A stretch of DNA of 64,000 bases from Eledone cirrhosa (Eukaryota), in the NCBI GenBank assembly GCA_964016885.1, contig OZ024755.1, positions 36,828,001-36,892,000 of the forward strand, written 5' to 3'. Shown here piece after piece: positions 1,897 through 64,000 of the stretch (its first letter is position 1; every line of letters starts with the position of its first letter). A program made the translations under genes and the position numbers. The notes beneath the pieces are model-generated. The model saw nothing but the letters and a program-made list of their open reading frames with translations. It made no database searches and was not told where the DNA came from.

Positions 1897-2205
1897 AAGT
1901 GAGTCCTTCATCAGTGACCCTCCAACCGTCCTCGGCATTTCATCGCTTTAAGGGCCATATGCCTCAGGTTGGTGCGAACAACGGCTAAAAAAAGTCGTTG
2001 GGACACGTAAATAAAGGGGGACGCTAGAGTAACAACAAAAAGGTTTAAAACCTTTTTGTTGTTACTCTAGCGTCCCCCTTTATTTACGTGTCCCAACGAC
2101 TTTTTTTAGCCGTTGTTCGCACCAACCTGAGGCATATGGCCCTTAAAGCGATGAAATGCCGAGGACGGTTGGAGGGTCACTGATGAAGGACTCACTTTTT
2201 CATAT
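1889..2205. repeat. Perfect palindrome, 158-bp arms, 1-nt centre (2047)
   Basis: Arms are reverse complements around aggttt-a-aaacct; a diverged single arm occurs at about 63800-63980. Confidence 0.92.
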
Positions 2206-6648: not shown

Positions 6649-6693
6649 ATTAGCCAACAATGTTTCGTCCTATTAAGGACTCATCAGGGCAAT
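6649..6693 (-). ncRNA. Minimal type-I hammerhead ribozyme
   Basis: attgcc-CTGATGA-gtcc ttaata ggac-GAAA-CATTG-TT-ggctaat. Confidence 0.88.
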
Positions 6694-8984: not shown

Positions 8985-9393
8985 AGTTATCTAGATAACT
9001 ATTTCATCTGTAAGGATTATCTAGTTTCCTGAAACCTTTGGTAATGGAATAATTATGTTGTGTTGTTTATTATGTAATTAAATATATATATATATGTATA
9101 TATATAAACATTCTTGAAGAAACAGGGAGCTGTGTGGTTACTTCATAAAGTTTATTTGGAAATAAGAGGAAAGCACAAACGGGGGACAATCCCTTCATCA
9201 GTTGCCTGCTGGACATTTCAACACATTAAAGAGAATATGTCTAGTTCCAGTGCGTCAATAACTAAAGGAAGTTATTGGGGAAAAAAGGAGACAGAGAAAA
9301 CATATAACAGAAGGGAAAAAGGAAAAGAAAAACGGAGACAACATACCGAAAATGAGGGAAACACGAAAAGCACATGTATGTATATGAGTAACC

Positions 9394-9481
<88 letters not shown>

Positions 9482-20787: not shown

Positions 20788-20906
20788 GTAAGGAATGAAA
20801 GGACAGATATATTTTTCAAGTATGGGGGCTGGAATTAGAGGTTAGCGCAGTGCATGTGAGTGTTTATAAAAAGGATGACGAGAAAAACTGAGAGGTGTAC
20901 TTGCTT

Positions 20907-22654
20907 AAATGTTAGCAGACGAGACAATGTAGCTTCAAGAGACATAGAGCAATATAATGGAAATGTTAGCAGACGAGACAATGCAGCTTCAAGAGACACA
21001 GAGCAATATAATGGAAATGTTAGCAGACGAGACAATACAGCTTCAAGAGACACAGAGCAATATAATGGAAATGTTAGCAGACGAGACAATACAGCTTCAA
21101 GAGACATAGAGCAATATAATGGAAATGTTAGCAGACGAGACAATGTAGCTTCAAGAGACATAGAGCAATATAATGGAAATGTTAGCAGACGAGACAATGT
21201 AGCTTCAAGTGACATAGAGCAATATAATGGAAATGCTAGCAGACGAGACAATGTAGCTTCAAGAGACATAGAGCAATATAATGGAAATGTTAGCAGACGA
21301 GACAATGCAGCTTCAAGAGACATAGAGCAATATAATGGAAATGCTAGCAGACGAGACAATGCAGCTTCAAGAGACATAGAGCAATATAATGGAAATGCTA
21401 GCAGACGAGACAATGCAGCTTCAAGTGACATAGAGCAATATAATGGAAATGCTAGCAGACGAGACAATGCAGCTTCAAGAGACATAGAGCAATATAATGG
21501 AAATGCTAGCAGACGAGACAATGCAGCTTCAAGAGACATAGAGCAATATAATGGAAATGCTAGCAGACGAGACAATGCAGCTTCAAGAGACATAGAGCAA
21601 TATAATGGAAATGCTAGCAGACGAGACAATGCAGCTTCAAGAGACATAGAGCAATATAATGGAAATGCTAGCAGACGAGACAATGCAGCTTCAAGAGACA
21701 TAGAGCAATATAATGGAAATGCTAGCAGACGAGACAATGCAGCTTCAAGTGACATAGAGCAATATAATGGAAATGCTAGCAGACGAGACAATGCAGCTTC
21801 AAGAGACATAGAGCAATATAATGGAAATGCTAGCAGACGAGACAATGCAGCTTCAAGAGACATAGAGCAATATAATGGAAATGCTAGCAGACGAGACAAT
21901 GCAGCTTCAAGAGACATAGAGCAATATAATGGAAATGCTAGCAGACGAGACAATGCAGCTTCAAGAGACATAGAGCAATATAATGGAAATGCTAGCAGAC
22001 GAGACAATACAGTTTCAAGAGACATAGAGCAATATAATGGAAATGTTAGCAGACGAGACAATGTAGCTTCAAGAGACATAGAGCAATATAATGGAAATGT
22101 TAGCAGACGAGACAATGCAGCTTCAAGAGACATAGAGCAATATAATGGAAATGTTAACAGACGAGACAATGCAGCTTCAAGAGACATAGAGCAATATAAT
22201 GGAAATGTTAGCAGACGAGACAATGCAGCTTCAAGAGACATAGAGCAATATAATGGAAATGCTAGCAGACGAGACAATGCAGCTTCAAGAGACATAGAGC
22301 AATATAATGGAAATGTTAGCAGACGAGACAATGCAGCTTCAAGAGACATAGAGCAATATAATGGAAATGTTAACAGACGAGACAATGCAGCTTCAAGAGA
22401 CATAGAGCAATATAATGGAAATGCTAGCAGACGAGACAATGTAGCTTCAAGAGACATAGAGCAATATAATGGAAATGTTAGCAGACGAGACAATGCAGCT
22501 TCAAGAGACATAGAGCAATATAATGGAAATGTTAGCAGACGAGACAATACAGCTTCAAGAGACATAGAGCAATATAATGGAAATGTTAGCAGACGAGACA
22601 ATACAGCTTCAAGAGACACAGAGCAATATAATGGAAATGCTAGCAGACGAGACA
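20907..22654. repeat. 54-bp minisatellite, about 32 copies
   Basis: Unit gytagcagacgagacaatgcagcttcaagagacatagagcaatataatggaaat; gives the 606-aa and 622-aa ORFs. Confidence 0.97.
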
Positions 22655-23491
22655 TCAACACCCAGAGGTATAGACTGTAATTTTTGTTTGTGAGGGAATT
22701 CATGCTAATCAGTTCGCGGCTTTGATAATTTTAGAATACTACGCAAAATATTAAGAAATAGTGAAGAAATATAAATTTAATTTAGTATATATTAAATAAA
22801 TTTGCATATCATATATAGTCATATCTTAATAATCACAATGGAATATGAAATATGCATGAATTCCATTTGACCACGACTGTGGTCTTGATTAGAAGACTCT
22901 AGTTGAATAAATATGAATCACCTATCTCTTTATTTGAAGATAACGCCAGTATATTTATTGCTCTTGGTAATTTAAATAAAATTTCGAAATTTAAACAAAA
23001 TTGCGTCTGACTAATACAAATGACACAACCATAAAAGTAAAAAAGATATACATTTTCTATATTAAAGATATTCCCAAATTCGCATATATTGATATTGAAG
23101 TTACAAGAGGACCTTGTTACAAAATACATGTTGATGACGAAAAAATGACATTGCAGTCTTGTTTGACGTAAGAATGTCGCACTGAAGCTCAAGATCAGAA
23201 GAACGTGGCAAGAAAGATCAAAAGATCAAAAGAACGTGTCCATAAGCAAGAAAGACTCGGCTGTGCTTGGGTGCACTTGGTGATCTAACATCAAGAACTG
23301 CCTATAACATGGCTGTTAACAACAGGTTTACAACGCTAAACTTGCTGGAAAAAGAACGACCACCGGTATGAAATATACACGGTTCTGAAATAGGTTATCA
23401 GGAAGACGGCAGAGGAGATTCAAGACAAGAAACTAAGACGCCAACAGAGCAATCTAGCTGAGACAAGGAGTGACAAGGCTACGCGACTTGA

Positions 23492-26778: not shown

Positions 26779-26781
<3 letters not shown>

Positions 26782-27050
26782 ACTAGATACCTAAAATCAG
26801 TGCGAGCGATAACTAAATTAAGTTATCGGGACAGAGGAAAACAAGAAAGGAAACAAACAACATGGTAGTAATGCAACGTTTCTTCTCGTCATTTGATTTG
26901 TCGGACTTCAGCCCACAAGATTCATTGACTTGTCTCTCTTTTCCTCTCTTTACGTTGCATTACTACCATGTTGTTTGTTTCCTTTCCTGTTTTCCTCTGT
27001 CCCGATAACTTAATTTAGTTATCGCTCGCACTGATTTTAGGTTTAGTCTT
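26779..27050. repeat. Inverted repeat, ~100-bp arms
   Basis: Arms 26779-26879 / 26952-27050. Confidence 0.9.
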
Positions 27051-27166
27051 TAATGCGAAGAAATAGCAATGATAAACAGCAGACTACTGATGATGGACAG
27101 TCCTGTTTCTCGGTCTATTTTTATTCATATGTTCATATTCGCAACAACGCAGCACGCCATTTTTCA

Positions 27167-27349
<183 letters not shown>

Positions 27350-52239: not shown

Positions 52240-53885
52240 CACCAACCCCCCTTCCTGATGATAACCAATTATTGCACTAGTTGCACCAACCCCCCTTCCT
52301 GATGATAACCAATTATTGCACTAGTTGCACCCCCCCCCTTCCTGATGATAACCAATTATTGCACTAGTTGCACCAACCCTCCCCTTCCTGATGATAACCC
52401 ATTATTGCACTAGTTGCACCAACCCCCCTTCCTGATGATAACCAATTATTGCACTAGTTGCACCCCCCCCTTCCTGATGATAACCAATTATTGCACTAGT
52501 TGCACCAACCCTCCCCTTCCTGATGATAACCCATTATTGCACTAGTTGCACCAACCCCCCTTCCTGATGATAACCAATTATTGCACTAGTTGCACCCCCC
52601 CTTCCTGATGATAACCAATTATTGCACTAGTTGCACCAACCCCCCTTCCTGATGATAACCAATTATTGCACTAGTTGCACCAACCCCCCTTCCTGATGAT
52701 AACCAATTATTGCACTAGTTGCACCCCCCCCTTCCTGATGATAACCAATTATTGCACTAGTTGCACCAACCCTCCCCTTCCTGATGATAACCAATTATTG
52801 CACTAGTTGCACCAACCCCCCCTTCCTGATGATAAACAATTATTGCACTAGTTGCACCCCCCCCTTCCTGATGATAACCAATTATTGCACTAGTTGCACC
52901 CCCCCTTCCTGATGATAACCAATTATTGCACTAGTTGCACCCCCCCCCCTTCCTGATGATAACCCATTATTGCACTAGTTGCACCAACCCCCCTTCCTGA
53001 TGATAACCAATTATTGCACTAGTTGCACCCCCCCTTCCTGATGATAACCAATTATTGCACTAGTTGCACCCCCCCCCTTCCTGATGATAACCAATTATTG
53101 CACTAGTTGCACCCCCCTCTTCCTGATGATAACCCATTATTGCACTAGTTGCACCAACCCCCCTTCCTGATGATAACCAATTATTGCACTAGTTGCACCC
53201 CCCCTTCCTGATGATAACCCATTATTGCACTAGTTGCACCAACCCCCCTTCCTGATGATAACCAATTATTGCACTAGTTGCACGCCCCCCTTCCTGATGA
53301 TAACCAATTATTGCACTAGTTGCACCAACCCCCCTTCCTGATGATAACCAATTATTGCACTAGTTGCACCCCCCCTTCCTGATGATAACCAATTATTGTA
53401 CTAGTTGCACTAACCCCCCTTCCTGATGATAACCAATTATTGCACTAGTTGCACCCCCCCTTCCTGATGATAACCAATTATTGCACTAGTTGCACCAACC
53501 CCCCTTCCTGATGATAACCAATTATTGCACTAGTTGCACCCCCCCTTCCTGATGATAACCAATTATTGCACTAGTTGCACTAACCCCCCTTCCTGATGAT
53601 AACCAATTATTGCACTAGTTGCACCAACCCCCCTTCCTGATGATAACCAATTATTGCACTAGTTGCACCAACCCCCCTTCCTAATGATAACCAATTATTG
53701 CACTAGTTGCACCAACCCCCCTTCCTGATGATAACCAATTATTGCACTAGTTGCACCAACCCCCCTTCCTGATGATAACCAATTATTGCACTAGTTGCAC
53801 CAACCCCCCTTCCTGATGATAACCAATTATTGCACTAGTTGCACCAACCCCCCTTCCTGATGATAACCAATTATTGCACTAGTTG
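52240..53885. repeat. 41-45-bp minisatellite, about 38 copies
   Basis: Unit (ccaa)ccccccttcctgatgataaccaattattgcactagttgca with variable poly-C. Confidence 0.97.
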
Positions 53886-55357: not shown

Positions 55358-55515
55358 TATAATTACATAGCTGAGTTGTGATCCATCACCCCCTCGTAGC
55401 TTACGGTTAGTAACTTGGTCAGCGGCTGCTTATTTGTCCGACAGGAGGCCTTCTTTATCGCAGCAAACCATCACTATCAGTTACCTGCGTTCTCTAGCAC
55501 AACAGCTCGGGCGAG

Positions 55516-57082
55516 AAATATGATAATGTATAAATATGATAATGTATAAATATAATAGTGTATAAATATAATAGTGTATAAATATGATAATGTATAAATA
55601 TAATAGTGTATAAATATAATAGTGTATAAATATAATAATGTATAAATATAATAGTGTATAAATATAATAGTGTATAAATATAATAGTGTATAAATATAAT
55701 AATGTATAAATATAATAATGTATAAATATAATAGTGTATTAATATAATAGAGTATAAATATAATAATGTATAAATATAATAGTGTATAAATATAATAGTG
55801 TATAAATATAATAGTGTATAAATATAATAGTGTATAAATATAATAGTGTATAAATATAATAATGTATAAATATAATAATGTATAAATATAATAATGTATA
55901 AATATAATAATGTATAAATATAATAGTGTATAAATATAATAGTGTATAAATATAATAATGTATAAATATAATAGTGTATTAATATAATAATGTATAAATA
56001 TAATAATGTATAAATATAATAATGTATAAATATAATAATGTATAAATATAATAGTGTATAAATATAATAATGTATAAATATAATAATGTATAAATATAAT
56101 AGTGTATAAATATAATAATGTATAAATATAATAATGTATATATATAATAGTGTATAAATATAATAATGTATAAATATAATAATGTATAAATATAATAATG
56201 TATAAATATAATAGTGTATAAATATAATAATGTATAAATATAATAGTGTATAAATATAATAGCGTATAAATATAATAATGTATAAATATAATAATGTATA
56301 AATATAATAGTGTATAAATATAATAATGTATAAATATAATAGTGTATAAATATAATAATGTATAAATATAATAATGTATAAATATAATAGTGTATAAATA
56401 TAATAGTGTATAAATATAATAGTGTATAAATATAATAATGTATAAATATAATAGTGTATAAATATAATAATGTATAAATATAATAATGTATAAATATAAT
56501 AGTGTATAAATATAATAGTGCATAAATATAATAGTGTATAAATATAATTGTTTCTACTTTAGGCACAAGGCCAGCAATTTTCCAGTGCATTACTGGTACT
56601 TTATTTTATCGACCCCGTAAGGATGAAAGGCAAAGTCAACCTCGGCGGGATTTGAAATCAGATCGTAAAGGGACGTAACTATGCTGGAAAGCATGGCGTC
56701 CGACCCTCTACCGATACTGCTAATCCACCGCCTATAATAGTATATAAATATAATAGTGTATAAATATAATAATGTATAAATATAATAGTGTATAAATATA
56801 ATAATGTATAAATATAATAGTGTATAAATATAATAGTGTATAAATATAATAGTGTATAAATATAATAGTGTATAAATATAATAGTGTATAAATATAATAG
56901 TGTATTTATATAATAGTGTATAAATATAATAGTGTATAAATATAATAGTGTATAAATATAATAGTGTATAAATATAATAGTGTATAAATATAATAATGTA
57001 TAAATATAATAGTGTATAAATATAATAATGTATAAATATAATAATGTATAAATATAATAATGTATAAATATAATAGTGTATA
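55516..57082. repeat. 16-bp minisatellite (aatataatartgtata), about 85 units, split by a SINE
   Basis: Regular 16-bp period on both sides of 56546-56732. Confidence 0.96.
56546..56732 (-). mobile_element. tRNA-derived SINE (main family) within the 16-bp array
   Basis: Family homology. Confidence 0.92.
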
Positions 57083-57236
57083 CTGCCCGGTAAAAAAGAT
57101 GAATCCTTGCTGTTTATAAACACATATCTACTATTATCCTAAATCATAAACACATATCTACTATTATCCTAAATCTAACACCAATGTTACTGTTTACGTT
57201 TTCACCGGCACTCTTAACGGTGTGGTATTAGTAATA

Positions 57237-63513: not shown

Positions 63514-63594
<81 letters not shown>

Positions 63595-64000
63595 ACTTAT
63601 GTTTACCGAATTCACAGACTAGACCCCTTCTTCCTCCCGTTAGACCTGTGCGAAATTCCTTCCTTGCTCACATTTCAACCACGTTTGATGGTCTTTATTC
63701 TCTCTCGTTCACGATTTCACCGAACTTATATTCATAGAAATTTTTGGACTTGACTTCTTCTTCCTCACTTTTCGTTGCTCCACCATCTTTGTTTGTTTAC
63801 ACTCTCGTGTCCCCTTTATTTACGTGTCCCAACGACTTTCTTTAGCCGTTGCTCGCACCAACCGGAGGTATATGGTCTTTAAAGCGATGAAATACCAATG
63901 ATGGTTGGAAGATCACTGATGAAGGACTAACTTTATTCATATGTAACCCATTAGCAACGCCGCAGCACGTTTATTTTCATATATATATATATATATATAT

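Follow-up and report, generated by a model that had tools for sequence, protein, structure and literature searches.

A non-circularly permuted hammerhead motif with a kink-turn signature at the ends of abundant non-coding repeats in the genome of Eledone cirrhosa

In a stretch of 64,000 nt from the Eledone cirrhosa genome (contig OZ024755.1; hereafter the window), we identified a hammerhead-type motif of ~100 nt (copy A, 2090–2191, plus strand) that recurs genome-wide in about 10,000 copies. Its order of predicted cleavage site, GAAA and CUGAUGA is a non-circular permutation of the hammerhead, type SGC. In the reading that we consider probable, this S-G-C hammerhead self-cleaves at AUH| after position 2136 and releases unit-length RNAs from the tandem transcripts of a Penelope-like element (PLE) that is non-autonomous and likely derived from a Naiad. 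A preliminary description had placed the motif at 2138–2192; its real start lies ~50 nt further 5', and the fold was recognized because family variation placed the partners of variable letters upstream of 2138.

The words UAA-N6-GAAAU...CUGAUGA were present at all five places named beforehand. Across 3.0 Gb of genome sequence, the pattern extended 5' to CGCAC gave 9,935 matches (4,957 + 4,978), while the reversed control gave none. Divergent families were collected with relaxed patterns (987 overlapping matches versus 15 in the control) and with a GAAAC-type pattern (565 matches versus 9); the CUGANGA and GAAA core words were inside the search patterns, so that their conservation is by construction. 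A stem-based descriptor identified three intact copies within the window, with H17 at 2136 (+), 63872 (+) and 1958 (−), and none in 50 shuffled windows. In a metagenome scan the pattern matched 27 times, and no match folded convincingly.

Copy A, delimited by covariation and the descriptor, opens with the 5' strand of P1 (GUCC, 2090–2093), which closes the domain by pairing with GGAC at 2188–2191 (78.5% of cells paired, double changes at 4/4 pairs, present in the minimum free energy (MFE) structure of copy B). The P2 hairpin (2094–2115; ~90% paired, recovered by MFE) is followed by strand X (UCGCA, 2117–2121), the partner of AGCGA at 2147–2151, which supplies the upstream strand of distal stem II, a pseudoknot (82.6% paired). 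Next comes the 5' strand of P4 (CCAACC, 2122–2127), paired with GGUUGG at 2167–2172 (88.3% paired, double changes at 5/6 pairs); P4 is the equivalent of helix I and joins stems I and II. The non-bulged strand of a kink-turn signature (2128–2130, with U, G and A at 3n, 2n and 1n, assigned from base counts across sequences) leads into block S (2131–2136), which consists of the stem III strand GGCAU (2131–2135) and H17 (A2136). The predicted cut (AUA|U) falls between 2136 and 2137. Downstream of it lie the 5' strand of stem I, UGGCCC(U), and a UAA/UUAA linker (2137–2146); UGGCCC (2137–2142) pairs with GGGUCA immediately 5' of CUGAUGA, with double changes at 7/7 pairs. Block G (2147–2160) comprises the stem II strand AGCGAU, GAA and the stem III strand AUGCC, which pairs with GGCAU in a helix that includes A15.1–U16.1. 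It is succeeded by the 3-nt bulge of the kink-turn signature, G1b-A2b-N3b and the 3' strand of P4 (2161–2172), and finally by block C (2174–2191) with the 3' strand of stem I, CUGAUGA (2180–2186), position 10.1 (A2187) and the 3' strand of P1. A2187, directly 3' of CUGAUGA, forms the inner pair of stem II with U2152 (11.1–10.1, paired in 26/36 sequences). The earlier statement that no UH precedes stem I did not hold, as U2135-A2136 sits directly 5' of the stem I strand, just outside the coordinates first assigned. The motif had rightly been set apart from type II hammerheads (GSC): its site is 5' of GAAA, and their nested order is absent. Pistol- and HDV-like readings, considered by eye, were dropped after stems I and III had been found.

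We established the strand order, stems I and III, P4, P1, P2 and the sequence signature of the kink-turn, and the fold as a whole is well supported by covariation. For 36 non-redundant sequences, picked out of 52 after truncated and chance copies had been discarded, 86.8% of the cells were paired, with double changes at 30/36 pairs (a count inflated by kinship among copies); none of 500 shuffles matched this, and slid-register controls reached 31–47%. This outcome bears out the earlier proposal that retroelement ends carry a structured RNA or a ribozyme variant in which the hammerhead words have changed places. Pairing per helix was 94% for stem III, 86% for stem I, 83% for distal stem II and 72% for the first pair of stem II. 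Among 23 family representatives (31 clusters minus eight truncated, deleted or chance copies), pairing of stems III and I and of P4 amounted to 0.92, 0.93 and 0.83, compared to strand-swap means of 0.74, 0.77 and 0.63, and the observed value was reached in 0/2,000 swaps for each. The weakest helix across families was distal stem II (0.69 versus 0.58 on strand swapping), which at fixed register kept its pairing in 1/6 double changes; stem I kept it in 6/6 among disjoint neighbor pairs. With truncated copies left in, all 31 clusters gave weaker values (III 0.83, I 0.90, P4 0.71, distal II 0.61). U16.1 was present in 36/36 sequences and H17 was never G (A 21, C 14, U 1), both upheld in 23/23 families; A15.1–U16.1 and H17 were unselected in families found with the CGCAC pattern and selected by the relaxed and GAAAC-type patterns. 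Pseudoknot-free MFE folding of copy B recovered P1, P2, P4 and stem III at an unremarkable energy (z = −1.1).

The hinge between stem III and P4 is a 3-nt bulge followed by GA, facing N-N-A. In the 36 sequences, 1n is A in 35, 1b is G in 33, 2b is A in 35 and 2n is G, U or A; the corresponding family counts are 23/23, 22/23 and 23/23, with U (13), G (7) or A (3) at 2n, where G1b and A2b belonged to the GAAAC-type search pattern only and A1n to no search pattern. U or A at 2n occurs in non-standard kink-turns such as Kt-23. The hinge shares with kink-turns, including Kt-23, the 3-nt bulge, G1b/A2b, A1n, a variable 3b–3n position and canonical flanking helices, and it differs from them in its placement on hammerhead stem III. 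From this signature we infer a kinked geometry. A kink-turn had been suggested before, and its signature is indeed present, but at 2128–2130 with 2161–2166 rather than at the place proposed. In an abundant GAAAC family with a GUC site (L131–L154), the 5' strand of the hinge carries an insert of 6–7 nt or a small hairpin, possibly a k-junction.

The structure drawn originally for the 55-nt segment fared differently. Its inner hairpin (GCCG-agga-CGGT) and outer stem (gtctt/aggac) gave 59.3% paired cells, at the level of the shuffle mean (59.7%; 345/500), and the inner hairpin scored 0.30 versus 0.28 in the 23 representatives. These two elements would have been the basis for a box C/D-like motif, a SECIS element or a twister junction. 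Such readings could appeal to the GA dinucleotides and to the resemblance of the CUGAUGA word to box C, and the inner hairpin forms in two copies when the fragment is folded alone. Yet no Rfam family reached its gathering score within the window (best local score 16 bits versus 60), and the units hold no ORF on which a SECIS could act; taken with the shuffle-level pairing, this leaves all three highly improbable.

The swapped order is in print as the type SGC hammerhead (HRIMA-1) of Eckert et al. 2023 (PMC10085705), so that the motif counts as a variant of known ribozymes and not as the undescribed class first envisaged. According to the portions of that work considered here, SGC RNAs cleave in vitro at the analogous bond, the examples stem from metatranscriptomes only with none from genomes of known organisms, and CUGAnGA and its flanking stem strands are assumed to be inseparable. 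RefSeq searches gave no SGC examples, and non-circularly permuted hammerheads are considered rare. Copy A has in common with type SGC the S-G-C order, a 3-nt linker between stems I and II (here UAA/UUAA) and a helix joining the far ends of these stems (here P4). In the SGC alignments examined (PMC10085705), the stem II and helix I partners lie 3' of CUGAnGA and block C is uninterrupted, whereas in copy A the partners are located 5' of the cleavage site, ~1 bp follows CUGAUGA and block C is split, with 10.1 alone pairing from the 3' side (26/36) and the remainder from 2117–2121. Further differences are the connection of stem III to P4 on both strands through the kink-turn signature, the additional P1 and P2, and the occurrence of ~10,000 copies in an animal genome. 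Two traits have no counterpart in the published SGC material as far as covered here: the kink-turn signature that links stem III to the joining helix, and the placement of a stem II partner 5' of the site. The term ‘kink’ does not appear in the supplement to that work. As its predicted fold has it, the present form is the SGC ring with its opening moved into block C and with the kink-turn signature closing it at stem III. By analogy, it would work as an SGC hammerhead while departing from one defining feature, the uninterrupted block C. The published assumption of an indivisible block would then be too strict, and standard descriptors miss the whole class.

In the window and in sampled loci, the motif terminates non-coding units of ~0.5–0.75 kb that share 65–85% identity between families and occur in tandem arrays of up to nine or in inverted pairs, with (TA)n on the flanks. 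Two inverted pairs are located in the window, 1885–2046 with 2047–2242 and 26779–26879 with 26881–27170. In the first, the forward arm ends in a 37-nt tail with CGCAGC, followed by (TA)n (2206–2242, +), and the inverted, 5'-truncated arm (1885–2046, −) contains an intact mirror ribozyme (1903–2004, H17 at 1958; found with the descriptor). The CRCAGC ending followed by (TA)n, previously attributed to every copy, applies to the four main copies but not to this mirror copy, where the tail is missing as expected for a Penelope-like inverted end. Another 5'-truncated non-coding unit (63591–63981, +) has an intact ribozyme at 63826–63927 (H17 at 63872; descriptor). In a unit of a second family (26881–27170, +; ribozyme 26999–27098), 2 nt are missing at the cleavage site, and its inverted arm (26779–26879, −) retains the 5' half alone (P2, X, P4 and block S) with an intact AUC (H17 at 26786). 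A unit of a third family (9071–9408, −; ribozyme ~9283–9190, H17 at 9236) has a 9-nt deletion that removes the kink-turn bulge strand. The copies listed in the preliminary description at 27046 and 9190 hence do contain the words but are damaged.

The units resemble the non-LTR retrozymes of animals (bioRxiv 10.64898/2026.07.22.740005), which likewise are tandem repeats of non-coding units, each with a single hammerhead, and derive from Penelope-like pLTRs. In the sections of that preprint considered, these are defined and searched for by type I hammerheads, in contrast to the S-G-C motifs found here, so that our units share the tandem arrangement without falling into the class. A genomic S-G-C form was not reported in the literature within reach (subscription journals and bioRxiv supplements lay outside) and is missing from the consulted sections of this preprint and of a ribozyme paper from 2026.

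A Naiad origin of the units is likely because the ends of octopus Naiads match. Naiads are PLEs with an ORF encoding an N-terminal GIY-YIG endonuclease and a C-terminal reverse transcriptase (RT). Our comparison was made by eye, not computed, on those Naiad ends among 54 consensus sequences that surfaced in text searches. In Naiad_Obim and Naiad_Ovul, the consensus 3' ends share with the units the helices, the kink-turn and the P2 loop. The S-G-C order together with stems I and III was recognized in Naiads Bfor, Chem-3, Amil, Aacu, Anas, Movir-2 and Plae, in Obim and Ovul, in Esco (where stem II is unclear), in one ostracod element (probably Dst-4) and in one spider element (probably Smim) whose stem II lies inside the linker. 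This amounts to 12 Naiads from five phyla within the inspected set, comprising ctenophores, cnidarians, an acanthocephalan, arthropods and cephalopods; Sdum is an additional case with a decayed core. At the hinge, the other Naiads inspected have a plain bulge or an extra hairpin instead of the kink-turn. Nematode elements and the element before Lpol have a long stem II and follow the type I rather than the S-G-C order, Dst-3 and Skow-2 are unclear by eye, and nothing was visible in Tama. The 3' ends of Naiad-1_Movir and of bivalve Naiads carry what we take to be twister-like loop words where other Naiads have the permuted hammerhead, and Naiads may swap ribozyme classes. Naiad-1_Chem and Naiad-2_Chem share two apparently structured motifs at their inspected 3' ends that fit no hammerhead order and are candidates for another ribozyme.

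These observations bear on Craig et al. 2021 (PMC8557442), who, in the passages considered, describe Naiads as lacking canonical hammerheads and give ‘core’ or ‘half core’ words alone. The motif found here is likely the self-cleaving RNA that seemed to be missing from these elements. The finding weakens the case for Naiads prospering with no hammerhead, as well as the view of hammerheads as mere parasites of PLEs, and opens the part played by 3' self-cleavage in Penelope-like transposition to direct testing. As described in the same passages, Naiads have in common with our units the (TA)n targets, partial tandems, an inverted 5'-truncated arm and a one-ended tail of 30–40 bp, although (TA)n, tandem or inverted arms and a one-sided tail are common to other PLE clades too. 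Unlike Naiads, the units encode no protein.

Motif searches of the genome gave no Naiad ORF, while PLEs with a C-terminal endonuclease are abundant and young there, so that any mobilizer of the units can be named only as a candidate. Three Naiad ORF motif patterns, a method insensitive to decayed copies, gave 0, 3 and 0 genome matches; two of the three were read and are antisense chance matches in other LINEs, and one is a T-run. A protein search with a local endonuclease gave, in its best 150 matches, no long protein that carries this domain N-terminally. The Naiad_Ovul-type motif had one genome match, which lacks block S pairing. Checking for an upstream ORF, as proposed earlier, revealed none that directly adjoins the motif at the loci sampled; PLE ORFs lie 5' of it in three of these (L020, L072 and L080), with (TA)n or unrelated DNA in between. 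A young PLE family with many open frames of 775 aa and a C-terminal endonuclease was encountered at L088 and L090 and is a possible trans-mobilizer.

To look for traces of cleavage in genomic copies, we set the cut site from the fold ahead of the truncation and insertion tests. Truncations at the 5' side were not enriched at the predicted cut (77 copies versus 71 in the next window), a test confounded by TA microhomology (948 non-C-site copies). In the CCAACC families, 35 copies have an insertion of at least 2 nt in a 16-nt segment, of which 28 are duplications. Four of the seven non-duplicated insertions include the predicted scissile bond (P ~0.002 over 17 bonds); three insertions, AG, CAC and AC, are placed there unambiguously, and the remaining three of the seven resemble imperfect duplications. 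Two more A-rich inserts occur at the predicted bond in L158 and L159, one of them at an AUC site. Such scars would be left if RT ran off a cleaved end, added untemplated nucleotides and jumped back, or if ends were tailed and re-ligated. Because the site is TATA in most families, an endonuclease that nicks TA could explain part of the pattern. With seven events in all, the scars hint at in vivo cleavage followed by rejoining. A 17-nt duplication in L184 (G000:C11:5614723-5614779) begins exactly at nucleotide 1.1, where it would start if RT had reached a cleaved 5' end and primed anew.

Self-cleavage is likely because of the close analogy to SGC ribozymes and the insertion scars. The motif could instead be a hammerhead-derived, non-catalytic 3' element with its fold kept as a binding site for the element's RT or for a kink-turn-binding host protein. 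That stem II is broken after A9/10.1, that the 11.1–10.1 pair fails in 10/36 sequences and that 5' truncations show no excess at the site would fit this. Such a role seems quite unlikely given that all catalytic-core letters, A15.1–U16.1 and an H17 other than G persist while the stems turn over across families, and given the insertion scars at the predicted bond.

If the S-G-C hammerhead is active, the kink-turn would fold stem III back and bring P4 into position to connect the distal ends of stems I and II, and this connection, together with the 3-nt linker, would replace the usual contact between loops I and II. Standard hammerhead chemistry would generate a 2',3'-cyclic phosphate and a 5'-OH. 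About 20 bp (III, P4, distal II and P1) would still clamp both products, favoring re-ligation or monomer circles, and a PLE RT-endonuclease acting in trans would copy monomers or multimers into (TA)n, which would account for the tandem arrays, the inverted 5' arms and the tail on one side only. Both circularization and protein control through the kink-turn are what we infer rather than observe.

For a single RNA, the distance that separates stem III from the far ends of stems I and II poses a geometric difficulty. In the SGC work (PMC10085705), a direct link between stem III and the helix was, in the text considered, flagged as hard to fit, and the nine bp that P4 and the kink-turn make up together may, by our own estimate, be short for the monomer distance. 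Units in tandem arrays could alternatively use the same core and cut but be active only as a domain-swapped dimer of neighbors, with the kink-turn arm bridging the two cores, for which the minimal type I hammerheads of other PLEs are a model. We consider a dimer unlikely: single SGC RNAs with a direct connection between stem III and helix I cleaved co-transcriptionally in the published experiments covered (PMC10085705), the kink-turn supplies the fold-back that a monomer needs, and the inspected consensus ends of autonomous Naiads have one copy. For the monomeric S-G-C hammerhead, the kink-turn offers a concrete answer to the geometric puzzle left by the SGC paper and might serve as a handle for proteins in the engineering of ribozymes, and one non-circularly permuted hammerhead form is now placed in an animal genome with ~10,000 copies.

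A wider proposal, which we put forward tentatively as a speculative extension, is that the missing hammerheads of Naiads are a ring-shaped non-circular permutation opened inside block C in at least five animal phyla. In the elements studied here, it would be closed by the kink-turn, with folding set by a host protein of the 15.5K/L7Ae family and the cut ends held together to circularize the RNA.

Apart from the permuted motif, the window contains further CUGANGA...GAAA modules in canonical order at the ends of other repeats, at 6687 (−), 27463 (−), 44225 (+), 6208 (+), 10357 (+), 46905 (+) and 5487 (−). A tandem array at 52255–53860 (+) has a unit of ~44 nt with CTGATGA in each and no GAAA partner seen. 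Long minisatellite arrays at 20835–22730 and 55477–57138 yield repetitive open frames.
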